From NCBI GenBank assembly GCA_050273025.1, contig CP158635.1, forward strand, positions 7,192,001-7,256,000: a stretch of 64,000 nucleotides of DNA, written 5' to 3'. Numbering within the stretch: the first letter of the stretch is position 1; every line of letters begins with the position of its first letter. The stretch comes from Cenococcum geophilum (Eukaryota). A program made the position numbers and the translations under genes. The notes below the pieces were generated by a model, which saw only the letters and a program-made list of their open reading frames with translations, searched no databases and was not told the origin of the DNA. This document shows, piece by piece, positions 3,121 through 62,690 of this stretch.

Positions 3121-4447
3121 GTCTTAGTGTAGCCTATCTATTTAACCTTATACTATTGTGGTGGGGTAAAATGGGCCACTACTTAGTGCCTTAGCATTTT
3201 CCTATATATATCGAGCCTTCGGCTTCTCTCCTTCTTCCTATTACAACCGACCGGGAATACATTCTTTCCTTTCTTCTTACTGACTGCTTTCCTACTGATT
3301 AATTACAACTAACTGACCAACCAACCGACCGACCGACAGACAAACAGCACTGTGACTTTCCTATCTAAGAGTGGTCGTACCCTCCCATATATTTTATGGC
3401 ATTCCATATAGGGATGACGGCAAGCTCTTTAGATTAGAAGTCTGGCATTTTACACACAACTATATACGCGTAGGAACATACCATAACTATAGAAGAACCG
3501 CTAGCTATAGAAGAACAACCAGCTGTAGAAGAACCGCTAGCTAGATAGACGAGACGAAAGCAGAGAACTAGGCAGTATCGGACAGTAAGGGGAACCAGGT
3601 AGTCCCTAAACAGAAAGACAGCGGAAAAGACAGATATTAGACTTAACGCATAGGCCAAAGAGTGGCAAAAAGGAGTGGCAAAGGTCTTAGAAAGTTACGT
3701 ATAAGGACGTTAAGCGAACTAGCAAGCCAATCAGACAGCTTTAACCGGCAGTTGGAGATACCCAATTTCTTCTACCTGCGCACGGATATGGCTAGAGCTT
3801 TATTAAAGATGCAGAGACAATAGGCAGCCAAGGGCCAATTAATTAGATGGAAATGAGATCTAAGGCATCTAGCAGCAGAGGAAGTTAGCGCTGCCCTTTA
3901 GGAACAGAAGAGAGAATACCAAGCAAGGTCGCAAGTACACGAGATCAGATCTGCCCTCGAAAGCTTCCTATTCTGGTTTAGCTTTATCTTTTTTTAAGTT
4001 ATCCAGATCGTGTTAGCGGCGGCTACAGAGGCGTTCCATGAAGAAGTAGATATAGGCAGAAGCGTAAGGCTTAGCAGCACCCTACCGCGTGGAGTAACGG
4101 TAGGCTAAAACAGACGGACGTATCAAGACCCGGCAGTAGTAGAAGATGGCGATTCTGTGCTCTCCCAGGAAGACCAACCTCCAGGCGTTAAGAAGCAGCT
4201 AGAAGGAATCGAAGCCTATACCTCTTTTGCTGAGTATAAACTAACACCAGGATAGCCGTCTAGGACACTATTACTTTAGGCGGCAATGCAAGCAGACCTA
4301 CTACAGCATTTACCCGTAATACCTAGGACCAATAACCCTCAGCAGATAAAGGACAAGAACCGTAAGGACCACCTACAAGCTCCCAAGGAAGCTCTAGATG
4401 CGTTACCCTATAACTAGCAGTTAACAGCTCGAGACAGGATCTACGTT

Positions 4448-5270: not shown

Positions 5271-8200
5271 GATACGAAAACTGGCAGAATAGCACCCGAC
5301 CTCTGTAAGACTCTTGATATTCGCAGGACTTCCGATATCCGCAGGACTTTTAATATCCGCAAGATTCTACTGCCTTTAGACGACCGCAGCGGGACGTACG
5401 GGGTTAGCAGGATGGCACGCGATCTGGCCCGGGCCGATGGACCTATTTTAGATGCGGAGGAAGTTACCGTTTTACCGAGCACAAATGTTAAGGCTTAAAG
5501 GATCTTATTTAGTAAGGATTTGTATATCTGTCTAATTAAGGAAGACTGGTAGCTGGGATACGCGATTAACCTGGACCTGAACTACCGTGGCTCGGCAATG
5601 AGGGACGATTAAAAAACATTAAGAACTGGCTTTGTATATATTAAGGAGCAGACCTAGATAGACTGAAGAAAGAATAGACATAGTAGCGGGCCTTCCATAA
5701 TAGAGTAGCGCTAAAGATTAGTGATAAGAAAAGTATAAACTAGGGGGACTACTATTAGAATCGCCTAACCCTTAAAGACAGCCGCGTAACTAGGACAGCT
5801 ATTAAGCTATAGGAGAGTAATATATGACTAGAAGACTACATGCAGATTAGGTCATAGCCTATAGAGAAGGCAGCTAAAGCTAGAGAGGACTACTATTAGA
5901 ATCGCCTAACCCTTAGAGACGGTTATTAGAGACGGTTATTAGAGGTAGACGCTTAAAGTAAACTCTATAGTAGGTATAGAATGTTTAACTAAGGGACAGT
6001 TAAGTTCTAAGGTAGGGGAGGGGATGTAGGTAACGGCCGTATAAAAGATTTCTATTTATTTGCTTATTTACTATATTTCCTAAAGCTCCGTTTTTATTTA
6101 CTTTCTTAATCGCGACGCGTTAAGACGACCTGCCGCAAAAATATTAGTTTAGCTTACCGTCTATTGCCGAGCTAATAGCGATTTTTTATCCCGGGGACGG
6201 AAAATCCTAATTAGTCCATTTAGCAATAGAGCCGGCAGAACTCTATACTGCCCCTAAAATTCAATAATACGCCAGCTGCATAATAAGAACGGCACTAAGA
6301 GCCTTAATTAATTGCATGGATATAGAGCTAATTATATAATATAGAGCCAGACATAGAGCTAGACGCAAAGCCTTAATTAAATAACTGCACGGATGCCTTA
6401 ATCAATCGAGCAACCGTACTAAAGCCACGACTGGTCAAAGAATTAAATCAAGCCAAAGCCTTGATATCAGCACGTCGCCGTCACTGCATTAAATCAGTTA
6501 AATGTTGTTAAATTAGAGCCTTCGACTGGGCCGACTTTGTTCCTTATTTAAATAACAGCTAATCGCAGCTCTGCCCTGCTACCCGAATTTAGTACTATAC
6601 CGGCTATATAACAAGAACAAACACCGCGGTAAGGAAGGGACCTATATATAAGAACAGCAGTATGATATTGGAAATAAGCACCGTGGAACCGTAAAGCAGT
6701 ATATAAAGAGGCACTAACAAAGATACTCTGCGAGAGATTGTATATAAGGCGCAGCTGACTACGTTAAGCTTAAACCATCCTTATGCGACTAAAGACAGAA
6801 CTAAGCCATATCTGGCCAAGCTAGTAAAGAACTTTATTAAGGATTATAAGGGGAACAGGAATTGGACGTATAGGAACCGATGCTTTTTCCTTAGAGATTA
6901 TCTTAATAAAAGGACTGTATTATAGACGTAAGGGCAAGGGATATATAACGGAGGTAGTTACAACAGCTGAGAAGCTGTTATTAGATGACAAAGAGACTGG
7001 AAGCAGAAGATAGTCCCTAAAAGGCTCTTAAGCCAGAAGAAGATCAAGGATATGTAAGTATACTGCCAGCAGCGGGATTAAAGAAGCAGCCATAAAAGCT
7101 TAAGGATATAGCGAAGAAGCCAAGAGCAAGGATAATTTAAAAAAGGAAGAAAGCAGCTGTTAAGGACGTCCTATAAAAGCGCTAGGCCTATTATAGTGGT
7201 TTAGAGGAAGCTACTGTTAGTGCTTATAAAGAAGAAAGTCTTAGGACAGGCCTCTGGATTAGACGTCTGGTGGACACTAAGAGCCTTAATTAACTACGGA
7301 TGCAGAGCCCTAATTAATTAACTATATGGATACAAAGCTTTGACAAAACGACTACACAGCCAGGGTCTTAATTAATTATCCGCAGATGCAGAGCCTACGG
7401 ATGTAGAACCTAGGTTATACGTGTAGCAGAAGATGCCTTAAGTTAAGCCAGAGCCTCAGTTAAATCCTAATTAGTTAAACGCTGCCTCTATAGTTAAGTT
7501 GTTAAATTAGAGCCTTCGGTCGGGCCGACCTAATACCCTATTTAAACGTTAGTTAATTGTATGTTGTCACAGTCAAATCGAATTAGTCACCGTCGCCGTC
7601 AGACGTCTTCAATTAGCAGTTAAAGATTCTACAATAGTAGACAGACAGGCACTAGGCCTAACTAGGAAATTAGTATACAGCTGACACAACGTTAGAAGCA
7701 GAGCTAATTAATATCTTAGAGCCTTTGCGGGAGCTTCTTCCCTTAACTATCCCCCCTTTATTAATTAATTACTGCCCGTCTTAACGCCCACGGATTAGTT
7801 AACCAGAACGATCTTTCCTGTAGATATAGATACGGAGCTTTATACGGAGTCTTACACGGAGTTATATATAGACCCTATGGATATAGAATATATAGGTGCA
7901 GAGCGTTAATTGGACAACAGTATGGCAGCTTAACTGGACGCCTATAGATGCGAAGCCTTAATTGAACGGCAGATGCGGAACCTTAACATCGGACATCTAT
8001 ACGGAAGCTTTAATTAACTGTCTATAAATGTAAAGCCCTAGTTATATATGCAGCAGAAGACACCTTAAGTTAAGCCAGGGCCTCGTTAGATCTTAATTAG
8101 TTAAACACCGTCTCCGTATTTAAGTTAGGATAGTTAGAGCCTTCGGCCGGGCTGACTTTTTACCTTAATCGAACGACCGAACGATTAGTTGCAGCACATT

Positions 8201-20534: not shown

Positions 20535-21276
20535 TTATATAAGCTTTTTGGTATCGCTCTCCTTCAATATATAGCGTGCTTTAACTTCCTTAACTCTAAG
20601 TCTTTTATACTCCTTCGATATATAATATACTTTAACTTCCCTAACTCTAAGTCCTTTATACTCTTGTGGTTTTTCTTAGATAACTAGTATATAGTAAGTC
20701 TTCTAGGGGTCTTCTTTTCAGTCTTAACGTATCCTAATGATAATATAATGCCTAAACTTAATTTTAGTTACTATATTAAACTATAAAGACCCTACTCTTC
20801 CTAGATTAGCAAAAATGGTATACTTTTATCCTATTTTACAATTTTCAAACTACCTAATTTTTATAACTAATGCCTCTCGGTTAGTGTTAAACCGAAGATC
20901 TTTATAGCCTAGAACTATAATACTTAAATTTAATATAAAATCGATTCCTCTATTATATGTTATCTAAGACTAGAATAGTACTATTTAACCTTTATAAACA
21001 ATTAAAACTATCTTTTCCTTATTAGACCGCTTCTATAGAAGGAGCCTAGGAAAGAAATAGTTAAATACTTTATATCTTCCTTTAGTACCTAGGGTACTTT
21101 CTATATGCTTAACCAAGCTAAAGATTGCAGTATCCCTATTGGATTTATAGGAAAGACTATATTTTAAATACTTCTTAAAAAGGAATTGGATAAAGTTAAC
21201 CGTGCAATCGTACCTTAAGATTATAAGTCGTCTAGGAAAATTAGAATTAAGAGCGAAATATTGCCTTCTTAGTGGA
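20535..21276 (-). pseudogene. Last exon of a RIPed HET-domain (TOL-like) gene
   Basis: 247 codons with only RIP-type stops. De-RIPed ..FLFEKYSKCGLSY.SDR...RLLLWKR...VPSWSWMAYDGGIDF...YERLGVGEVEARYISK. Acceptor AG at 21278-21277, stop at 20537-20535. Confidence 0.88.
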
Positions 21277-23995
21277 CTAGGATATATAATTATAGTATTA
21301 GAATAAACTACTTTATAATTATTAGGCCATAGAGACGTATTAGCCGTAACTAGCTTGGCGCAGGCGAGGCGCAGGCGAGGCGCCTATAAAACATAGTCGC
21401 CCCATATTAGAGAATAGCAGAATTTAGTTCTATAGTTCTACTTTATTAAGAACTAGATACCTATTGCATTCCGCTACTATTGTTATGTTACTATATACCC
21501 TAAGGACCTTGGCGTCCTAACAGTACTAAATTCTTATCCCTTTTTAGGGGTAGTGGCCTAACAACACAGTGGTTTGCAAAGGCTACGACTATATAGCAGT
21601 AACCCTCTGTCGAGAAGACGACCTATATTTATTAACTATATCGCAGCCTATTGACCTAATGGCGAGACGCAGGCGTACTAGCGTAGTGCGTACTACTAAG
21701 TCTGGGAATTAGCCTTAGGATAATATAGGCGAACCTATATTGTTCTAGATAGAACTAGAAGCTATAGGCGAAGGGGATATATAGGAAGAAATATAACGGC
21801 TAGAGAACGAGAAGCTACAACTCCTAGAGTAAAGAAAACTACACTTGCTTAGGGAAGAGGTAGAAGTGCTAAGACGGCGTTAACGCGGCGAGGTAATGTC
21901 GACTCCCGTTCTTGACCTATCTCTATAACCTTAAATAATCCTATTAAAGTACTTAGGGGGTAGCCTAATGCATTTAAGCCTTAAGCGGAGGGCTACTAAT
22001 ATATTAGGCGCCCTGTTAAAACAGGCCGTTAAAATAAAGAAGATTGCTTTGTATTATGGCAAGTCTATATAAGAGCACTAAGACTTCCGTAATAGCTTAA
22101 AGCTAGCGTTCTACCTAGAGCGCGACGGCTTTATGGATAAGGATACTAAAGTTGCGTTTACTATATAATATATAAAGGGGACCAACTAAACCCTTTGGCT
22201 ATAGTATAAAGATAACTATCTAGATACGTAGTTTACCTAGGAAGAGCTTATAGAATTCCTACTTAATTAGATTAAAAGTCCTATTAATTAAGAACTCTAT
22301 ATAGCCCTAACCTATGCGAGGGCAATATAGCGAACTAATTAACTAGTAAATAAGTTTACTACTTACCTAACCTCCTTAGAAGTGTAAATTAATCCTCCTT
22401 ATAATATAAAGTATTTAATAATATATCTGTTCGTAAAGCTGCGGCTAGAGCTACGGGTTACTATTACTAACTATTAAGAATTCCCTTAAACTTAAGACCA
22501 GCTAGTTTCCCTAGCTGCCCTATTAAAGGAAAACTAGAAGAGCGCAAGCGCCCTATAGGGTAGAAGTAATAGGCATACCGCGAACTCAAATATAAAAACC
22601 ACCTAGTTAGGTAATTTAGGGAAAGCGGACTCTAAAACTACCGCCGGCAACTTAATGGTAGGGTAAAGTAATACTGCCGAGGGTTTAACTTAGCCTAAAG
22701 GAAACTGCTTAAGGTGTGGGTAGCTAGGATATTAATAGCGATAATATAAAGAGCTATAACGGAATTAACTACCGCTAAGCAGTGTAAACGCTACCTCTAT
22801 ATTAGGAAAAGATAAGCGCCCTTAGACCTCCTTATAGCTATAGGGTGTAAGCTCCTACTAGATTATAAGGAAGCTATTACTGTCTTAGGTAAAGTCCTTT
22901 TTAAGTAGATCTGGAAGGAGACCTTAGTAATACTTAATATTGGTGCCGAAGTAAATATAATTAACCAGCGATTTACAATAGAGTGTAACTTTAAGACACT
23001 AGATATAGAATTACCTACCTACTTCTGGTTAAATAAAACTTAGGTATATTACTATAAAGCCTATAAGGTACTATTATAAATAAAGGACAGCTGGGGCAGG
23101 ATTAGGGAAGTAACCCTTATCTGCTATAGAATGGCTGATATATCTCCCCCTGTTACCCTAGGTATACTAGGGTTAAAAAAGGCCTAACTTCTTATTAACT
23201 GCGAGGCGAAGGCGTAGCGATAGAAGCTAGACGGCCCGTCCCTATTACTATAAACCCCTAAGGGTTTTACGGAGTCTCTCTAGAGGAAACCTAGGGTCTT
23301 TGCCCTAGTGATTACTGGATTAATACCTAGTAAATAAGACGACGGTAGCTTACTAGTCCTTCCCCCATAGTTAAAAAAAGCTAGCGATGTCTTCTTATAT
23401 AAGGAAGCAGGAAAGCTACCCTAACACTATTAAGGCGACTATGCTATTGACCTAAAAGAGGGATAGAAGGTCCTATATAGACTGCTTTATAACCTCTTAG
23501 TTAAGGAGCTAGAGGTACTAAGGGAGTACTTAGACGACGCCTTAGCTAAAGGCTGGATCTAATTAAGTACTAATCCCGTAGGGGTACCTGTCCTATTTAT
23601 ACCTAAAAAAGATAGGAAGTTGCGGCTCTGTGTAGACTATAGAGGCCTTAATAAGGTGATAATTAAGAATTGTCTCGCACTACTATTAATTAGTAAGACC
23701 TTAGACCGCTTAGTAGGTTTTAAAATCTTTACTAAGTTGGACCTAACAAATGTGTACTACCGCCATTATATCCGTCGGGGCGATAAGTAAAAGACGGCGT
23801 TCCGTACGCGTTACGGCCATTTTAAGTATTGGGTTTTACCTTTTAGGTTAACTAATAGACTAGTAACCTTTTAGGGCTACATTAATCAAGCCTTATTAGG
23901 ACTAGTAGACGTCTTCTATATAGTCTACCTTAATAATATTCTAATTTTCTCGGAAAATCTAGAGGAATACTGGCGCTACGTACTAGAAGTGCTAT

Positions 23996-34900: not shown

Positions 34901-37309
34901 ACGGAAAGATTAAATTAGACGCTAGAGCAGTATCTAAGGCATTATATTAATCATATATAGAACAATTAGGTATTACTATTACCAGTTATATAGTTTGCAT
35001 ACAATATAACACCTTAAGAAGGAATAGGTATATTACTATTTAAAGCAAATTACGGATATAAGCTAAGAATATTATTATTACTACGGCAAGCAAAGAAAAT
35101 AAGTAGTATAGCGAAAGAAAGAATAAAGACGTTAATAAATCTTTATATAGACCTTATAGAATTAGTAAAGAAAGTATAAAAGAGAATAAAAAGGTACTAT
35201 AATGCTAAGAGATCTAAGGGACTAGATCTTAAAGAGGGAGATAAAGTATAGCTACTATATAAAAATTTTAAGAGTTAACGACTAAGCAAGAAGTTAGACT
35301 ATGTTAGGCTAGGACCTTTTAAAATTATATAAAGAATTTTACTAGTTATATTTAAGTTAAACCTACTAGCTAAAATAAGAATCTACCCTATATAGCATAT
35401 TATAATGCTAGAGCTAGTATACGGGAATATTAAGCTACTGGTTTATAAAGCAGACATGTATAAAGGATAGGAAGAAGACAAATAGTAAGTTTTAAAGATC
35501 GTTAGTTATAAGGACGTTGATAATAAAATATAGTATAAAGTAAGGTAGATAGGCTATAATGAGACTACCTAGGAACTACTGGAAAATTTAAAGAATGCTA
35601 TAAGAAAGGTATAGGAGTATTGGAAGAGATTAGGTTAGGCAGTATTAATAAAAAAGGATCGCTAAAGAATAAGTTACCTAAGGGGGACCTAAGAAGAGTA
35701 GTTGCCGAACTACTTAGATCTATTTCCTTCCCTATTAGAAGAGAATCCGTTCTTTTATTACTAAGTTCCTATAAACCTTATTCTATAAGTTTCTACTTCT
35801 TAAAATAAACCTTTTTATAAACCTTCTTAAGACGAAGCAACTAAGTAGACGCCGTAATGCGAGTATTTAGGGCCTTTTGTTCCGCATTATAAGAACGTTC
35901 TAATTTAGTAAGGGCTTAAGACAGTTTACTATCTAGCCGCGCAGTAGTAGATTAAATATAAGACCCTAAGACAAATTAATTAGGGAACTAGATGACTATT
36001 AAAAGTAATAGGTCGCGTATATTTAGTATTAGAGGTAGAGCGAACGTTATAGGACGAATAAATATTTGCTTTAGTGCACTCTAAGTAAAAGGACAGTTAT
36101 TGCGAAGATAGGTTTGCTAACGCAATATAAACTAACCCCTCTTTTAAATAGTAAGAATACGGAGATAGTATAATCTTACTAAAAGATAATATTGCAGCAA
36201 TAGTGCGAGCACGACGTTAGGCGTGTAAAGAAGAAATTACTTTAGGTATAATAAGTAACGATATTAACTAAATTAATTAGACGGACATTATACCTCTAGT
36301 AAACGACTTAGAGATATTTTAAATCTTTAAGGACGAAGATAAAGAGGAGGGAGATAGTGTTACGGACGCTTTAAGTACAATATTATAACTATTTAGAGAG
36401 AAGTCGGAAGAAGCTAGTTAGTTAATTTAAGTACGGTTTAGAATAGAGCTAATAGAACTATATAACGAGGAATAATAGCTAAGGTTATATATTATACTAC
36501 GTGTTAAACGAGAGAAATGGGAGGAACTTACGTACCTTACGTATAAGACGTATATTACGTATAAGAAGGATTTTATAGGAGTACGGTTGTGTATTTAAGG
36601 ACCCTTAGTCCCTACCTAGATAGTTCCTTCCTTATAGTAATTCTTAGAATATAATTAGAGTTAATCTATTGGGCAACTACTCCACTAGTTATTATTTCGT
36701 TGTTAACTTCTATACTTGCATTACCTATATACCTAGCCTAATAATAGGACCCATTGTAGTTCTTACTATAAGGTTCCGTTACACATTAAGGTTAGCCGTA
36801 TCCCCGCTAGTAACCCGCTAGCGCTTAGCCCTATTAATAAGGATAAGTAGCTTATTTAGGCGGCTATAGAAGGCCTTAGGGACCTAGTCTATTAGCCATT
36901 AAAACCTAAACTAACGCACTTAGACTTACTAGTTGATATAACTTATTTAGTTATTAGTAGTACCCGTAATTGTAGTTAGCCTACTTGCCGTAGGTGGCCT
37001 GCCTAGTAGTGGCTATACGTTTAGCGTAGCGGAGGTAAATTAGTTTAAGTAAGGCTAGGGAAGCACCTTGCGAACGACAAGGAAGCTTTAACGGCGTTTA
37101 GTAGGGTTAGTGACAGCTATAAGCTAGTATAAAGAATACTTATGGAAGGTTTACTAGTAGGTAGACCGACAGCTTAGCGCTTGCGATTTATAGTTAATTA
37201 GAAATCGTAAAGAAGGCAAGTTATAGGCTAAATAAATTAAAATGGAATTGGAAGGGAAATCTAATGTTCTACCTAGGTAGGAACTTCTACCTTTATAGAT
37301 CTCTATAAG

Positions 37310-37410
37310 GTCCTATTATTATATTATCCTATTATTATATTGTCCTATTATTATATTGTCCTATTATTATATTGTCCTATTATTATATTGTCCTATTATT
37401 ACATTATCTA
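37310..37410. repeat. 16-bp tandem repeat (cctattattatattgt)n in the 3' region of E
   Basis: About 6 visible copies. Confidence 0.9.
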
Positions 37411-37747
37411 ATTTACTTAAATTTATTAAAAACTTTTTATTTAGAGAAGGGCAATAATAGCACTCCTATTGTATAATAGCGTCGGCTAAGGACAGCCGTT
37501 TAAGAAGGGGGGGGTAATTGTTAGGCTATAGAGACGCACTGGCCGTAACCGGCTTAGCGTAGGCGAGGCGCAGGCGAGGCGCCTACAAAACGTAGTTGCC
37601 CCGCATTAGAGAACAGTAGAATTTAGTTCTATAGTTCTACTTTATTAAGAACCAGATACCTATTGCATTCCGCTACTATTGTTACGTTATTACATGCCCT
37701 AAGGACCTTGGCGTCCTAACAATAATGACCTTTAACTATAGCCTTAC

Positions 37748-38890
37748 TATTTAAGCCTTATGAAGTTTTTGTAACGTATGCCTTTCCTACACTCCTAATA
37801 TGTTAGTTCTATAGAAAAATGGATAGTTTGGTGGGATAGCACCCTTTCTTATAGTACCCAAGCTCTCTTATTAAGAGGCCCTTTATCTATATCTTTATTA
37901 TAGTTATATATATTATTATAGATATAAACCTCTTTACGGGAGCTACTTTAGATCTAAAAATACTAAGGACTTAAGTTCTGCTTAAGGAAGCTATCTCTCC
38001 AATTAGGCGCCGAACTTATGGTAATAGTATAGTAGGTAGAGGTAAAGACCTCTTCTATATACCCAGCTTCCCTTTTCTAATCCTCCTTATTTCCTTAAAT
38101 TATATAAAGAGAATTAATCTAAAGGTACCCTTTACTAAGTTCTTAAGTCACTTAAACCGCATCTTAAAATGTCTTTAGTAGATTATTATAGCTAAATCCC
38201 TCCTTTACTCAATTATAGTAGTTTTCTAAAGTAGTGCAGAACAGCTTCTTCTTCTTATCCGTTGGGTTATCCTAGTAGTGCGAGAGTATAATATAGTCCT
38301 CTCTACTACCTTGCTCCTAAAGTTTTAATTTATTAGGATTTAGGCCTCTAATAAATATAACCCTTATTAGCCAGTATTGCCCTTACCGGTTACATTTGTA
38401 ACTTTAATTACACTTTTAAAGCCATTTATATAGTAACTAGAAGTGTAGAGTACTACTAGTAGGGGAGTAATTAATTGTTTGTAAAATAGGTCTAGTTTTA
38501 GCATTATTACTGCTGTCTATTAAAGGTTCTTTTATTAATATAAAGTAGTAAGTGATATTTATATTACTAAAGGAGGGGGTAGACAAACCTAGATCTATAA
38601 TAAGGCGAAGGATACGTGGACCGCCTTTAGTAATTTTTAGCGCCGAACTATTCCTAACTATAATAGTAAAGGACTATATTATAGAGAAGCTTATAAAGAG
38701 TATAATTATTTGCTAGATTATATAATTTAGAGGTATTAACAGAGCCGTTAGAAGAGAGTAGCTAAGTGTAGTCTAAATATAATTAAGCCGAGACGGGATT
38801 CCTAGAGGGTATATTCTAGGGCTATTTGCTAAAAAATTCTATAGTAAAGTTACCGTTAATATAATAGGTCTAAGATGCCTAAGTAAAGAC
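37748..38890 (-). pseudogene. HET-domain-encoding exons (38890-38589 and 38528-37748) of the RIPed HET gene
   Basis: De-RIPed LLREWL..CD..H.C...WPTRVI, DYVALSHCW, LPKTFQDAV.VT.ELG..YLWIDSLCIIQ, W..EA..ME.VF..AYCTIA, GPLNKRAWVLQERVLS, YWEC. Intron 38588-38529 and donor gtaagg at 37747. One frameshift near 38660. Confidence 0.92.
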
Positions 38891-38935
38891 CTAAGTTAAT
38901 ATAATACCTAATAAAACTAAAATATTAAAATATAG

Positions 38936-39533
38936 ACTTACTTCCTATATCAATAAATATACTATAGTTAGTAGTTATCCCATCTAATCTATCTTAAAGA
39001 GGTTAACTTATATTCTATACTACCAAATATACTATAGTTAGTAGTTATCCTATCCTATCCATTTTAAAGAGGTTAAATTACTTCCTATACTACTAAATAC
39101 ACTACAGTTAGCAGTTATTCTATCTTATCTATTTTAAAGAGGTTAACTTACTTCCTATACCACTAAATATACTATAGTTAGCAGTTATCCTATCTAATCT
39201 ATCTTAAAGAGGTTAACTTTTATTCTATACTACCAAATATACTATAGTTAGTAGTTATCCTATCTTATTTATCTTAAAGAGGTTAACTTATAAGCTATAC
39301 CACCAAATATACTATAGTTAGTAGCTATCCTATCTTATCTATCTTAAAGAGGTTAACTTATTTCCTATACTACTAAGCATACTATAGTTAGCAGTTATCC
39401 TATCTTATCCATCTTAAAGAGGTTAACTTATATCTTATGCCACTAAACGCACTATAGTTAGCAGTTATCCTATCTTATCTATCTTAAAGAGGTTATTTTA
39501 TATACTATACTACTAAATATACTATAGTTAGCA
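38936..39533 (-). repeat. 70-bp tandem array (~8.5 periods); each unit carries splice-donor, branch and acceptor motifs on the minus strand
   Basis: Exact 70-bp period (ggtta at 39001, 39071 ... 39491). Minus-strand unit reads gtaagt...gctaac-tatag/tgtag followed by 20 nt. Confidence 0.93.
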
Positions 39534-39848
39534 AATACTATTCTTTCCTAAATAGTATTATCTACCTCCTAAATTTTAAAATTACTATTAAAGGATTAGC
39601 CTTATAAGGCCAAATTATATATATATATACTACGTCTCTATTAGATTAATATATTTTACTTTTCCGTTTAAGCCTTACTATAAAATTATAGTAAATCCAC
39701 GCCATTTTAAAGATTTGGTGTTAATTACACTATAGGATAACTTCGCGGTTAGGGATAGTTTAGATTTATAATATAGGGTAAGGCTTAACTAAAAGTAACG
39801 CTACTAGAACTTAATATTGTGTTACCCCCTAAGTAAGATACCCCTAGG

Positions 39849-40060
39849 TATTAGACTTAGTTAGTTAAGGCATAAGTACCGCAAAAGGTTAGGCGCAAGC
39901 CTATATAATTAGTAGTTTATTAATAAGGATCTAAAGCTAAAGAAAGGAAAGGAAAAGATAAGTAGCGCCGCTTAAAGTTATATATAATTTTCTAGTCACG
40001 TAACTAAAACCGTCTGCTAAGTTCTGCCGCAATCTGCCGTTTTCTACCAGCGCCGTAATA
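39849..40060. mobile_element. Solo LTR
   Basis: Similar to 19344-19629; flanked by ctagg and ctaag. Confidence 0.8.
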
Positions 40061-40065
40061 CTAAG

Positions 40066-43000
40066 TGTTACGGCACTAGTAGAAAACGGCAGAACTTAGT
40101 GGCAGAACTTGGTAGAACTTCGCGGTTACGTAACTAGAGGACCGTATAAAAGAACCCTACGTCGACCGGCGCTACTCTTCTCCTCCTTTTCTTTCCCTAG
40201 CTTTAGATTCTAGTTTATAGACAACCTAATCATATAGACTTACGCGATCCCCTTTCTATGCTAATGTCTTGATTAACTAAGTCGCTGTCATAGGACGTGG
40301 GGCAGTGGCTACAAAGCGTATGTATTCGAGGAGTCTATAAGACGTTGCGCGATCGATCGTAAGGGTCGAGGGCGTAAGGAGGTGATATACCTACGCGTAG
40401 CTGACATAAGCTATACGTAAGGTGTATGTGAGAGCACGGGGCTCTCCTATAGAGGCCCCTGCGGTGGGGTTCCGTGATATTACCCCCCCTTTTATAGAGG
40501 CGGAGCTCCGGCGACGCTGTGGTTACTATATATATGTAGAAGAGACACTTAAGGTATAGAAAAGAAGAAAAGGGGGGTATTACTAAAGGCTTAAAATAAC
40601 GTTATGTGATAGGGCTTGGCATCTAAGAATCCGACTAATTAGATAACTTTAACCGCCGGTTGAAGTTCCTGGACATTTTAATAATATTCCGGTTACGTGA
40701 TTGCACTTTACTATAATTTGACGGCAATCTAATGGCAATTTACCCTTACATGGTAATGTATAACGGTTTAACTCTATAAGGGCTCCTATAGAGGATTAGG
40801 TATAAAGTTTCTGCTTAGGCCCGGTTTCTATAGGTTTGCGTAGTAAAAGTCGCTAATTAGATCCTTTGCATTTTTAAAGTCTTCCTATAGTTGCTATTCT
40901 GGCTAATCTATGTTGAATCCTATATATATAGCTCTGTAGTAGAGCCGTCGTCCTCTGCCTTTGCCAAAGTATTTAGAGTTAATAATTCGTTTAACGGTCC
41001 ACTCCTTATGGTTCTCGTCTTTGTTCTTATCTCGGATTAGTACTAGTAGGGGTTTAGGCTGTATCTGCCCTAATAAGGGGTTGGGCTAATAGAGGTATAG
41101 TAGCTATGGGTAAAATACGGGCTATATCCCGCGGGTGGCTAGGGTAGGCGGGAGTTCTAGCTTATATGCGGCTCCCCTGTTAATAACTCGTTTAATTAGA
41201 TAGGGGCTAAGGTTTTTATAATTAAGTGACTTTATAGGCCTCTATGTAGAGATATTATGTGTATCTAGCTATACCTAGTCGCCAACACATATCTCCGGTG
41301 GTGGCGTTCTATAATAGTTAGCGAAGTAGGCCTGCTTTGCTTAAGCCCAGGCCATTTCTCCCTTACAGTAGTTAAGTAGATTTTTTATATAGTCTGTATA
41401 CTGGTCGGTAAGTAGTATTTTAAGGCGTTTTATATATAGTAGTTTCTTATTAATAGGTTCTGGTGGCTCTATACCAGATTAGGGGTAATAACCCTTATTC
41501 GCGAAGAACGGGGTAAGTCCTGTAGTGGTTAAGACGTAGTTATTTACTGCGAATTTACCTAGTAGGAGGTGATTTACCTAGTTATCTTGACTATAGGCGA
41601 CTACCTATTATAGGTATGCTTTTATACTGGCATTAGCATTTTCCGATTACCCAGTAGTTTTATAGTAAAAGGATGTAAATATCTTAACGGAGATGCCAAG
41701 GCGTTGGCAAATTTGTCTCTATACATTAGAGTTAAATTATATGCCTTAGTCGGACGTAATTAAGTTCGGTAGCCTATATAGTTAGTAAACTTTGCGAAGG
41801 AAGGCGTTAGTAATATTGCTGACGGCTACGCCTTTGGTTAGGACGTAGTGGCGCTCTTTTATAAGTCGGTATATTATTATAAGGATGTTCTTATAGGTAC
41901 GGCCATATCGTTTATAGGGTAGTAGGTTAATAACGAAATCTATAGCGATATCTGCCTATTGTTGTATAGGTACTAGTAGAGGGTATAGTAGTCCTTGGTA
42001 CTTTGTATTAAAGGCCTTAGCGCGCTTATAACCGTAGTAGGCGCCTATAAAGCGTTTAACTAAGTCTATTATTTTTGGCTAGAAGTAGTATCGGCTAAGA
42101 AGCTCGTAGGTTCCTTCTTTACCTAGGTGGCCGCTTAATTAGAGGTTGTGGGCCATTTGGATTAGTTGCCGTTATAGATTTTCTAAGTTAGGGATAAATA
42201 GGTGGCCTTTATAATAGAGCCTGTTCTCTTTTACTTCTAAGGCTGCTATATTAATTTGGCCTAAGCTTTAGAGGTTATTAGGCAGCGTATAGGCGCTGGC
42301 GGTCTTTACGGCAATAAGTTAATATAGTAATAGGTTGACAGAGGCGTTATATGCCGTAGTAATAAGCTCGTTAATTTTGGGAGGTAACTCTAGTTCTATA
42401 GTATAAAGCTGGGGTATAGTTGGCTCTATTATAGGTAGTATGCCTAGGGCCAAATTTTGTACTTTTAGGATTGTCTGTTGTTGGAACTGATTATAGGGGT
42501 TATCTTTGGACTAAGGAAGGTTTTGCGAGCGGCGTATTAGGTTATTAGGTTTAGTACCTTATACTTCTAGTCTATATATAATTTTAAAGTTAAAACTAGA
42601 GAGGAACTTATTCTAACGTGCTTAGCGTTAGTTTAGCTACTTTGTGGTTATAAAGTACTTAAGATTATAATGGTCTGTAAGGACTTTAGTTGGCTAGTTA
42701 GGCTCTGCTAAGGAGAGTTCTAGTTAGAATTCTTTAAACACTTATATAATTGCAAGGAGTTCTTTATTATAGATCTCGTAGTTATACTCTTATAGTATAA
42801 GCTTAGATGAGTAAAATGCGACTAGGTAAAGGAGACCGTTATTACCTATTTAGGAGAGGACGCCTGCGTTAACGTGGTCTAAGGAGTTGGTTTTAAGGTA
42901 GAGTTATCGTCCTGGTATAAAGTAAGCTAGGATAGGTGCTTTAGTAAAGGCATTTTTAAGGTCTTAGAACGCCTTCTCGCATTTAAGCGTTTAGGTAAAG

Positions 43001-49915: not shown

Positions 49916-51192
49916 TTATTATTATTGATTCTTGTTTAACGTCTAATGCGGTCCCAATTAAGGTCCATGCAGACTACTGCCGTGATATAGATACAAAAAC
50001 CTCCAAGGCGAACGTGAGTGGTAATACAGAGTGTACCCCTCCAGGTAGCACGCCCGTACTACATCAACGGGAGGAAAAATACCTTTTAGGTCGCTGCTCT
50101 GAGACCCCCGTACGGGGGTGTCCTAATTACCTATCTTGCCCTGTCTGCCGCTCGTACCATGCTTCCTGATATTAAGTTAAATTGCCGCATAATTTTGTGT
50201 GCCTGCCCCTTGCTCCCTTAATTGCCCTATATATATATATGTGTATACGCCTAGGTCCTTCTGCTTGCAGCATAATTTCCACCCTAAAGGAGCCAGCGGG
50301 ACGAATGTAACTAGGTGTCTTATCCTAGGGCCCCAACCTAGGTCCCCTACATCCTTATTCTCCTGCATCTTAGCTAGGTTTTAAGACGTAGAGGGAGACA
50401 AAATACCGCGTGGGTAAGTCCAGGCTGTCGGGTAAGGTGGGGAATGAGAGGCTTATCACAGACTTCCCGAGGCGTATGCGTTCGGCCGCCGTGCCGTATG
50501 CGTTCGGCAACTGTATGCGTTTGGTCCGTATGCGTTCGGTCATGCACCGTTGCGCTTGGTCGCAGCCGTATGCGTTCGGTCCGTATGCGTTCGGTCGCCG
50601 TATGCGTTCGGCTACAGCGCCGTACGTATTTGGTCGCCGTGCTATGTAGGTTTTGCCGTATATATAGTTGTATGCCGTACGGGAGGGAGTAAAGGGGGGA
50701 CGCCGTTTTAAAAGCCGTGCTTTAGGTGTACCAGAACTTATACGAAGACGTAGTAGTACTCGTAGGCCTCTACTGGGGCTTACCCTCCCAGCAGAAGCTT
50801 CTTCGCACTACCACGTCGCAGCGCCGGCGCTGCGCAGCCGTACGCACGTCTCTGCGTTTGCTCTAGTAGTCTATTAGCACGATCCAGATAGGACGCCAAT
50901 AGCTGCATACTAGGTTCCCGGGCTCCACCGCGTGGAGGTACAGAGGCCGATTTTATGGAGTCGTCTTCTTAACTGTTATATGGGTCTTGGCGCCAAGACC
51001 CGTGAAAACTCTGCTGTTCTGACGGCGTTAAGGGTTGAGTATTCGAAGGCGCCCTCTAGCCACGACGTAACGCCGCTGCATCAGTAACAGACGAGATCCT
51101 CACTCTTAGCTTGACCGTGCGGACAAGATGAGACGGAAAGGAACCCCCATAGGAAAGTATGGGTCGGATCTCGATTTTGGTGTTCCTTTTTC
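49916..51192 (-). mobile_element. 1.3-kb non-coding SINE-like / non-autonomous non-LTR insertion in the integrase of G
   Basis: 14-bp TSD tctgtgcataatta at 49902-49915 and 51193-51206. (AAT)n tail on the minus strand. 3' end resembles the LINE end at ~18954-19013. Confidence 0.85.
50470..50670. repeat. Degenerate tandem repeat with core ccgtatgcgttcgg
   Basis: About 9-10 visible cores inside the SINE-like element. Confidence 0.88.
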
Positions 51193-59769: not shown

Positions 59770-60410
59770 TAGAGCTGTGGAGCTTTGCGAGAGCTCTGCG
59801 GAACGAAGCTTAGGGGGAGACCTGCACGGAGCTCTGCACGGAGCTCTACTAAAGCTCTGCAAAAGCTTTGCACGAAGCTCCGCTTGAAGCTCTGCTCGAA
59901 GCTCTGCTCGAAGCTCGAAGCTCTGCACGAAGCTCTGCATGGAACTCTACACGAAGCTCTACTAAAGCTCTACTAAAGCTCTACACAAGGCTCTGCACGA
60001 AGCTCTGCAAAAGCTCTGCACGAAGCTCTGCACGAAGCTCTGCACGAAGCTCTGTAAAGGCTCTGCTCGAAGCTCTGCTCGAAACCCTATATAGAGCTCT
60101 AAAGCTCTACTAACACGCAGCACTAATATACTAGGAAGGTTCTACAATTGCCCGTACGAACGCCCGTCTCTACAAACGTCTCTGCAATCGATCGCCCGTA
60201 CGAACGTCTGCACGTCTGCACATCTACACGTCTGCGCGTCTGCACATTTACACGTCTGCACGCCTGCACGTGGCTCTGCATAAGGCTCTGCACAAAGCTC
60301 TGCACGAAGCTCTGCACGAAGCTCTGCATAAAGCTCTGCATAAAGCTCTACTAGAATCTGTATAAAGCTCTACTAAGGCTTTACACGAGGCTCTGCACAA
60401 GGCTCTGCCT
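59770..60410. repeat. Minisatellite block: (gaagctctgcac)n 12-mers flanking (acgtctgc)n 8-mers
   Basis: 12-mers at ~59770-60110 and ~60270-60410; 8-mers at ~60170-60270. Confidence 0.9.
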
Positions 60411-61469
60411 AAAGCTTACCCCTAGTAGTCGTAGAGGCACTCCGGGCCAAGGGAGGATATTTTTAAGAAAGGACCTAACTATAGCACTTACTAGGTGTTG
60501 CAATAGCTTTAGGTAGTAGATATCTACATATCTATATAGTTTTATTAATATTAGCAGACTATTTAATAAGATATAATACGTGCTTAGGCTTTTAATAACG
60601 CGTTTTTATAAGGTAAGGATGTGGATAGGGAGTCCAATAATAGAACAATAGGGTATATTGTATAAGTAGAGACAAATCCTTAAGGGAGAAGGAGGAGTCT
60701 GAGGTGCGAGGTAAGGGGTTTCCATAGGCACGTATAGCGTATATGCCTTATAGGCAAGTCGCCTACGGGTCGCCTGTACCTCATAGCTATATAGCTATCT
60801 ACTTAGGTTTTACCTAATAATGCCCCCCCCTTTAAAAAGGGTCGTCCCTGATCCTTTATATACTTAGGCCTTAATAAAACCCTATAAAAACCTTTAGAAG
60901 GAAAAAATTGGAAGGGAAAGAGCGTCCTAATTTTGCGCATAGAGAGACAGGTGGTATACTTGCGCGGCGCAAAGATGTTAAGGAACTTCAACCGCCGGTC
61001 GAAGTTGTCTAATTGGTTAGATTTGGCTTACTAAGACTTCCCTGCATTTTACCGAGCCAATAGCGATTTTGCATGCCCGGTATGGAAAATCCTGATTGGT
61101 CCATTTAATAGGTAGAGCCAGTAGCTCAATACTGTCGCCCGAATTTGGTAGACAAGAAATATTCTAAAAGCTCGCTTATGTAGGCAGGTCGCTAGTACCT
61201 CGTGGGTAGGTCGTAGGTTACTTACATACAGCCAGATTTATAGACGGTGAGGCTGTATACCTATTAAACCCGCCGCTGACCCTTGCTTTAGCCTTATGAT
61301 ATACCGGCGTAGCGCCGTATATACTTTGCGGGTAGGTTATAGGTTACTTATATGCAGCCAGATTAGGATAGTAAGGCTATATGCCCGTTAAATCCGCCGC
61401 TGACCCTTGCTTTAGCCTTACGCGTTATCTGCATAGCATATACGTGGAATAGTGTATAAGTTGTCTATA

Positions 61470-61822
61470 CAGGTCACTACCAGTAGGTCACTAGCAGGTT
61501 ATAGACCCCGGTTAAAGGACCCCGGTTACGGACGGGTATAAAACAATATAAGTCGTTAGTATAGGTCACTACCAGTAGGTTACTAGCAGGTCGTAGACCC
61601 TGGTTAAAGGACCCTAGTTATAGACGGGTATAAGATAATATAAGTCGTCGGTATAGGTCACTACTAGCAGGTCACTAGTAGGTTGTAGACCCTGGTTAAA
61701 GGACCTCGGTTACGGACGGACCTATCCGGTATAAGTCGTCGGTGTAGGTTACTACTAGCAGGTTACTAGCGGGTCGTAGACCCCGGTTAAAGGACCCTGG
61801 TTTTAGACGGACCTATTACCTA
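61470..61822. repeat. ~92-bp tandem repeat, 4 copies, plus a dispersed copy at ~62747-62850
   Basis: aggtcactac units start at 61471, 61563, 61655 and 61746. Confidence 0.9.
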
Positions 61823-62362: not shown

Positions 62363-62690
62363 CGTCGGGTCGCGATACGCCTATGTAAGGTGTGTGTTTA
62401 GGGGTATGCGGTATCCGAATCTAACGTCGGGTCGCGATGTCCTGCGCACGATATGCGTTTAGGGTATGCGGTATCCTAGTCTTAGCATCTGACGTCGGGT
62501 CGCGATGTCCTGCGCACGATGCGTTTAGGGTATATAGTATCCTAGTCTCGTTCTCTAACATCGGGTCGCGATGTCCTGCGCATAATATGCGTTTAGGGTA
62601 TGCGGTATCCTAGTCTTGGCATCTAACGTTAGGTTGTGATATCCTGCGCACAATATGCGTTTAGGGTATGCGTTATCCTAGTCTCATATA
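62363..62690. repeat. ~62-68-bp tandem repeat, 5 copies
   Basis: Unit cgtcgggtcgcgatgtcctgcgcacgatatgcgtttagggtatgcggtatcctagtc. Confidence 0.9.

Follow-up and report, generated by a model that had tools for sequence, protein, structure and literature searches.

A number-variable array of intron-shaped 70-nt units at the 5′ end of a HET gene subfamily, possibly a chain of introns and one-codon micro-exons

The array and the HET pseudogene of the window

A 64,000-nt stretch of Cenococcum geophilum contig CP158635.1 (assembly GCA_050273025.1, positions 7,192,001 to 7,256,000), here called the window and numbered from its first letter, carries a tandem array of 70-nt units in the 5′ part of a decayed gene of the HET-domain family. 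The array had been described in an initial annotation, made from the letters of this stretch, as a series of 50-nt introns and 20-nt micro-exons. Using Tandem Repeats Finder, a single strong array was determined at 38936-39533, with a period of 70, 8.5 copies, 86% matches, 0 indels and a score of 853, and it lies on the minus strand, which is also the strand of the HET-domain pseudogene. All nine 20-nt segments (38942-38961 to 39502-39521, minus strand) are present in the annotated register, and the 50-nt segments between them are indeed intron-like, with a [G/A]TAAGT-like start and an end composed of GCTAAC/ACTAAC and T[A/G]TAG. Repeat-induced point mutation (RIP) has hit six of the nine donors, most of which now read as forms such as ATAAGT, AAAAGT and ATAAAA, and the GT start is left in the three donors that had been counted as intact (GTAAGT at 39151 and 38941, GTAATT at 39081). 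The surroundings are AT-rich, RIP-type DNA with several copies of Gypsy-type long terminal repeat (LTR) elements, and self-BLAST found the region 36787-40286 to be unique inside the window except for 37515-37724.

The gene downstream of the array belongs to the HET family. Scanning of three frames with stops read as X gave in one frame a match to the HET domain PF06985 over profile positions 1-146 of 146 (~38295-37845, same strand as the array), which scored 31 bits vs a gathering cut-off of 22.5 (E 3.7e-7), in agreement with the annotated position of the array in the 5′ part of a HET gene. A phmmer search with the window HET protein against 1.84 billion representatives returned 12862 matches at E<=0.001, the best of which showed 55% identity (E 4e-85). 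No intact reading frame is left in this copy: a tblastn comparison with the intact protein of a related metagenomic locus, L008, showed 22 stops in the main exon and two frames that join near 38657. A related contig of DNA run X5 has 26 extra bases at 38657, and the main-exon frameshift of the window corresponds to this 26-nt gap; both the frameshift and the RIP degradation had been noticed from the letters. The C-terminal half of the gene lies 16 kb from the N-terminal half on the same strand, and the direct repeats 37515-37724 and 21316-21525 bound ~16 kb of nested Gypsy-type LTR-retrotransposon copies that split the pseudogene. The repeat at 37515-37724 had a read depth of 60000-87000 vs ~100 in its flanks, and both 210-nt direct repeats are several hundred-fold over-represented in the source-like run. 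The window HET copy is a dead relic, disrupted by RIP-made stops, by the loss of 26 nt and by 16 kb of inserted retrotransposons.

Array-bearing relatives in metagenomes

Metagenome contigs were scanned with a 21-nt degenerate motif derived from the array unit, and nine loci were obtained. Four of them (L002, L003, L007 and L009) were unrelated single matches, and the other five, situated on four contigs, carry the 70-nt unit in arrays. The recognisable units numbered 2 in L004, 8 in the window, 20 in L008, 22 in L001 and 81 in L005/L006, which lie on one contig and whose three gaps imply ~84 copies; counted as period-70 copies, the arrays amount to 2, 8.5, 20.2, 22.6 and ~84, respectively. 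With head-to-tail units in the range of 10-100 bp and a copy number that differs between loci, the array is a minisatellite, or variable-number tandem repeat (VNTR); the loci may be alleles or paralogues, and the variation in copy number is one between loci.

A 70-mer spread without linkage to HET genes had been named as an observation that would speak against the initial annotation; this check went the annotation's way, as a HET homologue was found directly downstream of the array in all five related loci, as in the window. Furthermore, homology between the window and the related loci extends over ~300 nt upstream and throughout the downstream flank, except that the upstream flank has been replaced in L004. 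In L008, the main exon is open as far as the contig reaches, its 363 codons being free of stops, while those of L001 and L006 contain 26 and 22 stops and that of L004 is truncated. In run X5, which represents a second organism, contigs were found over both array flanks with ~89% identity and transition differences. Therefore, the association of array and HET gene is conserved and multi-copy, and the copy number of the array is highly variable.

The array of L008 (3964-5389) shows many RIP-type TpG>TpA changes, and the adjoining HET frame (5470-6558) is stop-free for 363 codons. Within a gene, the presence of a tandem array by itself seems sufficient to attract RIP.

Unit structure, gene architecture and competing readings

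The consensus unit of L008 consists of GTAAGT, 33 nt, GCTAAC, 22 G+T-rich nt in which the first AG is a TAG, and 3 further nt, that is, a canonical 67-nt intron with a CTAAC/CTGAC branch site plus 3 nt. GTRNGT, CTRAC and YAG are the consensus motifs of filamentous ascomycete introns, and judged by these sequence signals the L008 consensus is a U2-type intron (GTRNGT, CTRAC, a first AG that is YAG, ~45-100 nt). Among the individual units of L008, the donor GTAAGT was present in 19/21, the TAG in 21/21 and the branch site CTAAC in 16/19. When a 70-nt consensus was shuffled, any canonical intron parse on either strand was obtained in only 52-68 of 100000 shuffles, so the intron-like arrangement is not due to chance; for the L008 consensus, 52 of 100000 shuffles could be parsed at all, and 23 of those left a remainder divisible by 3.

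Variation among the units falls almost entirely on the three bases outside the intron shape. Minor-class transversions were counted per column of the aligned 70-nt units, and the three spacer columns gave counts of 36/36/27 in L006 (n=74), 7/5/6 in L001 (n=20) and 7/5/7 in L008 (n=19). Each of the other 67 columns had at most 2 in L006 and L001, and single counts in several non-spacer columns of L008 came from its last, truncated unit. In the window, 1, 1 and 4 of the eight full units carried a minor-class base in the last three columns and at most 2 did so elsewhere, which bears out the annotated concentration of transversions in the last codon of the 20-nt segment. A single array, that of L006, contains 20 triplet types. 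By contrast, the 67-nt part shows fixed differences between L008-type and L006-type arrays, which indicates homogenisation of the introns, but not of the triplets, within arrays. Spacer length is 3 nt at 137 of 138 junctions, whereas the 67-nt part contains indels (-9, -9, -4, -3, -1, -1, +3 and +10, the second -1 unit being the ambiguous 138th junction). G>A differences among the units occur almost only after T, which is the RIP signature. In run X20, which is possibly RNA, loose ends at 39331, 39364 and 39430 lead into un-RIPed relatives of the L006-type unit, and one X20 contig seems to have a 6-nt rather than a 3-nt spacer in front of GTAAGT, a length that is again divisible by three.

The triplets are also depleted of stop codons. 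TAA and TGA were absent from all 138 triplets, with 7.05 expected from the column frequencies, and zero was reached in 3 of 20000 column shuffles. The nine TAG triplets are confined to L001 and L006, where RIP stops are about as frequent in the main exons, and TGG>TAG is the favoured RIP change; in L008, 0 of 21 triplets are stops. The first G of the donor, where it stands in RIP-prone TpG context, was mutated in 0/8 units of L008, 5/5 of L001, 11/15 of L006 and 5/5 of the window, and its intactness in L008 is suggestive of selection on the donors of an intact gene.

Repeated insertion of a mobile, introner-like or transposon-derived element, with the triplets as remnants of target sites, would be another source of serial 67-nt units, and introner-like elements do occur in Dothideomycetes. 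In the source-like run X1, the depth over the array was 9-40x that of single-copy flanks, which shows that the genome has multiple copies of the unit; the HET part itself was over-represented 5-11x, however, and paralogous HET loci can explain the depth. Introner-like elements would be expected as dispersed single introns, whereas the metagenome scan yielded only HET-adjacent head-to-tail arrays in addition to the four unrelated chance matches, and no single introns in other genes. Moreover, the unit lacks terminal inverted repeats, and target-site duplications would produce equal flanking triplets, whereas the observed ones differ. We consider such an origin very improbable.

The division of the unit into 50-nt introns and 20-nt micro-exons, used either as a set of mutually exclusive exons or to switch the frame by copy number, draws on a second AG. 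The sequence ..CTAAC T[A/G]TAG stands at positions 41-50 in 8/8 window units, 14/20 of L001 and 48/74 of L006, the majority consensus of L006 can be parsed as a 50-nt intron, and the un-RIPed X20 loose ends show ..CCGTAG there. However, at position 49 of this putative acceptor (T[A/G]TAG, unit positions 46-50) a G was found in every larger array (11/19 in L008, 5/20 in L001 and 22/74 in L006), and since RIP only turns G into A, the ancestral sequence was TGG and the acceptor AG is largely a RIP product. This AG is only ~6 nt past the branch A. Furthermore, the 20-nt segment holds an invariant TAG (..GT[G/A]TAG) in the frame of the main exon, so that the phase-0 junction to that exon reads GTG TAG GAA with an in-frame stop, serial 20-nt exons would meet the TAG within three units in any frame, and only the last 3 of the 20 positions are variable. 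The proposed de-RIPed consensus, ..catgggaa read as xRLVAWE, would need the TAG to derive from TGG, and the middle G is present in 0 of 121 full-length (70-nt) units. A Dscam-type cassette of mutually exclusive exons is made of equal-length exons that keep the frame, whereas here the TAG is invariant and 20 is not a multiple of 3. The annotated last intron fared in part better: a distinct intron-like stretch does start at 38941 after the last copy, but a further in-frame TAG comes after its 51-nt end, in the un-RIPed L008 too, and the main-exon frame opens only past the second TAG, after 63 nt (38941-38879). Comparison of the sequences already contradicts the 20-nt exon, to which we would now give next to no credence, and both proposed mechanisms fall with it and give way to an in-frame 3-nt reading. 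The initial annotation is thus partly supported: it was right about the gene, the strand, the intron-likeness and the variable spot, and wrong about the exon boundaries, the de-RIPing and the mechanism.

The sequence around the array suggests how its units may fit into a gene. A short open reading frame (ORF) lies ~180 nt upstream of the first unit in all four loci with a homologous upstream flank. In L008, this candidate first exon (3769-3819) has 17 codons (MAFPDEQTVPWIHYNFI), with an in-frame TGA before the ATG, an ATG in A(-3)/G(+4) context and a GTAGGG donor in phase 0. Its gaps in the window (24 nt) and in L006 (9 nt) are both in frame, and L001 shows RIP changes only; unlike these, a gap in the stretch after the donor is 4 nt long. 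The donors read GTAGGG, GTAAGG or GTAGGT, all in phase 0. The junction TAG/GAG/GTAGAT before the array is identical in the window, L008 and L001, and reads TAG/GAG/GTATAT in L006. From the first exon to the main exon, the sequence is readable as a chain of canonical introns with 3-nt pieces between them, all in phase 0. The main ORF of L008 opens at 5470 directly after ..ACTTAG, reading ASWTCRIDDDFAAEFF.. (ASWTCRIDDD..), and lacks an ATG until ~residue 118, while the homology of P0152, P0167, P0187 and P0198 to L008 reaches the W at residue 3, with their Met 2-20 residues before the aligned W; P0238 starts with MPGW (by eye, outside that alignment). The lack of an ATG before ~residue 118, together with homology up to residue 3, points to a start codon of the array-bearing genes in an upstream exon, and we infer that the conserved ATG mini-exon upstream of the array is the first coding exon. 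By eye, the end of the mini-exon (..PWIHYNFI, L008 3769-3819) is loosely like the start of the main exon (..SWTCRIDDDF, 5476-5508) and also loosely like the N-termini of homologues, e.g. NWDYIIDNTF in P0167, and it is possible that the first exon arose long ago as a copy of the original start of the gene.

The same region could instead be a non-transcribed or promoter-proximal satellite upstream of the gene, carried along by duplication of the HET subfamily, with the mini-exon a coincidence and the genes starting elsewhere or all being pseudogenes. A TATA-like element (TATATATAA and GGCCTTATAAGGC) between the mini-exon and the array fits such a satellite, as do the repeat-rich, RIP-mutated surroundings and the four of five HET copies that are dead or truncated. 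It is nevertheless unlikely, given the L008 main exon with its 363 open codons, no ATG before ~residue 118 and homology up to the acceptor, and given the in-frame gaps of the mini-exon; the perfect intron shape of the units and the phase-0 fit at both ends would also be left unexplained.

We tentatively favour, with somewhat less than even confidence, the reading that the array is a variable-number chain of introns with one-codon micro-exons between them. The wider proposal, that this HET subfamily may encode an N-terminal protein segment through an expandable array of one-codon micro-exons separated by copies of one 67-nt intron, is put forward with more reserve. In this proposal, the array would lie inside the transcription unit, between the small ATG first exon and the large main exon, with all junctions in phase 0; each 67-nt unit would be removed as an intron, and the 3 bases between units would be retained in the mRNA, each triplet as a one-codon micro-exon. 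The number of units would then determine the length, and the triplets the sequence, of a variable peptide immediately preceding the conserved HET-protein N-terminus. Skipping of any unit would leave the frame intact, and as any donor could be paired with any acceptor in frame, many N-terminal variants might arise from one gene. Unequal exchange would homogenise the units within an array and change the number of codons, with the triplets staying diverse and the introns uniform. The repeated DNA would attract RIP, which would erase donors and make false acceptors and so provide a built-in route to gene death, as in the window. The array itself, its link to HET genes, its varying copy number, the intron shape of the unit, the restriction of variation to the triplet and the dead state of the window copy have been shown; the first exon, the splicing and the translation of the triplets are the parts of this scheme that we infer.

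The most serious competitor is a plain VNTR in a long first intron or 5′ leader, produced by tandem duplication of an intron segment and removed wholesale or stepwise, with no contribution to the protein and with the triplet as an unexplained mutational hotspot at the unit junction. A place between the ATG mini-exon and the main exon suits it equally well, the array-like contigs of X20 keep the intron-like part, the predicted peptides are unconserved and would range from 2 to ~84 residues, and a literature search, as far as the consulted parts of the sources go, found no precedent for arrays of 3-nt exons. Such a VNTR provides no cause for transversions confined to 3 of 70 columns or for 20 triplet types in one array, and it leaves unexplained the fixed 3-nt spacer, given that indels occur elsewhere in the unit, and the lack of TAA and TGA triplets. 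In addition, every unit is a complete canonical intron, which the intron-defining fungal spliceosome would be expected to recognise, and an intron of 1.7-6 kb would be exceptional for an ascomycete. A wholly intronic repeat is accordingly doubtful in our estimate, and yet a substantial possibility.

Several observations weigh against serial one-codon micro-exons. No RNA run was listed as containing 37400-40300, and no spliced reads were found: the 16 contig pieces from run X20 include a few array-like ones, which are of low depth and keep the intron-like part, as unspliced RNA or DNA would, and in the ~12% of raw RNA run X19 that was scanned there were 15 reads, nearly all of them from flanking high-copy repeats and about one array-like. 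The predicted spliced N-terminus occurred in no database protein of our searches: it was in none of the 120 proteins listed among the 1333 matches (E<=0.001) of the L008 main exon, and a search with L008 residues 1-90 gave one match among near-length proteins, which lacks it, and one among shorter proteins, P0262, whose N-terminus is unrelated, results that do not establish its absence. The predicted peptides themselves (e.g. RRWEDDRLVERLRLERLRDRE in L008) are unconserved. In 7 of 19 units of L008 a RIP-made AG lies ~6 nt past the branch A, and use of these would give stop-bearing 20-nt exons, so even L008 may be non-functional. The stop depletion is weaker than the shuffles imply, as the units were copied from one another and only ~25-30 triplet types are independent; the contrast in the first donor G comes from 8 units, and RIP has affected L008 less in general. 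Array copy numbers are approximate, as metagenome assemblies can mis-assemble arrays. Adjacent spliceosomes on serial 3-nt exons would clash, so that splicing would have to be sequential, and to our knowledge runs of 20-84 consecutive 3-nt exons have been recorded in no organism.

Other candidate explanations of the repeat were rejected. A plain coding repeat does not agree with the lack of any ORF of at least 90 aa across the L008 array on either strand. For a C/D-box small nucleolar RNA per unit, the box-like motifs are only ~15 nt apart (by eye) and there is no Rfam match; a search of L008 3600-5600 against Rfam 15 gave 0 matches at E<=1, and no unusual RNA stability was seen (fold z-score +0.61). 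An origin from a miniature inverted-repeat transposable element or by target-site duplication is opposed by the lack of terminal inverted repeats, and rolling-circle copying of an excised intron by the differing triplets of the units. In a recursive splice site, YAG and GTRAGT abut, whereas 3 nt lie between the signals at 137 of 138 junctions.

Features of the array-bearing HET locus in the window, with the evidence for each
Feature	Position	Strand	Description and basis
Candidate first-exon relic	39679..39705	-	ATG and 8 codons, MAWIYYNFI, then GTAAGG donor, phase 0; alignment with L008 3769-3819, L001 and L006
Unique intron-like stretch	39569..39678	-	GTAAGG ... TTTAG, 110 nt, with TATATATAA/GGCCTTATAAGGC element; kept in window, L008, L001 and L006
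First 3-nt spacer	39566..39568	-	GAG, between TTTAG and GTAGAT; alignment of four loci
Intron-like stretch	39505..39565	-	61 nt, unique 5′ half (GTAGAT..), array-type 3′ half (..GCTAAC..GTATAG)
Array proper	38942..39504	-	nine 3-nt spacers with eight 67-nt intron-shaped units between them; Tandem Repeats Finder, unit tables, per-column transversions
Array spacers, first five	39504-02 TAT, 39434-32 GAT, 39364-62 GAA, 39294-92 CTT, 39224-22 AAT	-	
Array spacers, last four	39154-52 GAA, 39084-82 GAA, 39014-12 AAT, 38944-42 GAA	-	
Last, unique intron-like stretch	38879..38941	-	63 nt (GTAAGTCTAT ... ATTAAC TTAG GTCTTTACTTAG); kept in all five loci
HET main exon, 5′ part	37750..38878	-	Cys-rich N-terminal region and HET domain; PF06985, phmmer, tblastn
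High-copy repeat	37515..37724	+	direct repeat with 21316-21525 (89.5% over 210 nt in self-BLAST)
3′ half of the same HET pseudogene	20538..21350	-	matches residues ~280-end of P0154, ~321-581 of P0153 and ~361-618 of P0167; tblastn

Further repeats were observed in the window and in L008. Two minisatellites lie in a GC-richer stretch at the window end, at 61455-61802 (period 92, 3.8 copies) and 62419-62685 (period 68, 4.0 copies), and a 16-nt repeat with 6 copies and 96% matches (37310-37405) adjoins a high-copy LTR-like repeat. An isolated island of 53% GC at 50001-51000 stands in the AT-rich, RIP-type DNA and contains 15-20-nt tandem repeats at 50494-50611. Related 12-nt satellites are present at 59822-60416 of the window (CTGCACGAAGCT-like) and at 1429-1699 of L008 (GCTCTGCTCGAA), the latter being open for >100 codons in several frames.

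Meaning and comparison with known systems

The window copy is a relic, and the interest lies in the family behind it. If the triplets are spliced in and translated, dozens of consecutive 3-nt exons would form an unprecedented gene architecture and a new way for a non-self-recognition gene to vary the length and sequence of a protein segment, beside the shuffling of WD repeats in Podospora. Such a gene would also make it possible to probe how small an exon can be and in what order an intron-defining spliceosome removes introns, and would be a live example of introns multiplying through tandem duplication. If the array is only intronic, a minisatellite whose dozens of units show transversion differences at a single 3-nt spot only would still need a site-specific mutational or selective cause, and the locus would still be a clear case of RIP both creating and destroying splice signals. 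For annotation, the 5′ end is probably missing from gene models of this HET subfamily in which the main exon comes first.

The comparisons made here draw on parts of the published sources, in which neither arrays of 3-nt exons nor minisatellites with an intron shape nor 5′-terminal repeats of HET genes were found to be described. In the EBNA-LP gene of Epstein-Barr virus (EBV), each unit of the IR1 (BamHI-W) repeats comprises exon and intron and, after splicing, the copy number sets the length of a repeat protein, similar to what is proposed here. An IR1 unit spans kilobases and has two exons of ordinary size. Unlike this viral gene, the present array has 70-nt units with a putative exon of 3 nt.

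Single 3-nt micro-exons have been described in Drosophila homothorax (PMC7392893), cytohesin-1 (PMC6314551), MAP4K5 (PMC8632122) and plants (PMC8831610), and they resemble the proposed ones in being one codon long, in frame and flanked by canonical splice sites; as far as the consulted parts of these papers describe them, those of animals and plants are solitary and conserved with long flanking introns, with no array or hypervariability among them. Recursive (ratchet) splice sites and the complex introns or stwintrons of fungi (PMC6224609, PMC7138796, PMC9024468) likewise juxtapose 3′ and 5′ splice signals within a long intervening sequence and would permit stepwise removal, but recursive sites have a zero-length exon (AG/GT) and stwintrons are nested, whereas here exactly 3 nt lie between the signals and the units abut in series. 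Intron gain through tandem genomic duplication (PMC4974935, PMC2891723) also makes new introns from a duplication over splice signals with the frame kept; it is reported there as a single event that restores the original mRNA, whereas here there are tens of copies, each of which would add one codon.

In the hnwd/het-d/het-e/het-r genes of Podospora anserina, the number of repeats in the WD-repeat arrays is extremely polymorphic, and concerted evolution homogenises them (PMC2873952). As described in the consulted parts of that work, they share with the present family the combination of HET cell-death or allorecognition genes with number-variable, homogenised tandem repeats, and rearrangement of the repeats generates variants, a diversification device inside the gene. 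They differ in that the Podospora repeat is a coding, C-terminal WD40 repeat without introns, whereas the unit here lies at the 5′ end and combines an intron with 3 nt; at 70 nt it is not a multiple of 3 and could be coding only through splicing. On these partial sources, the closest known system in logic is the hnwd WD-repeat system, and the closest in architecture is EBNA-LP.

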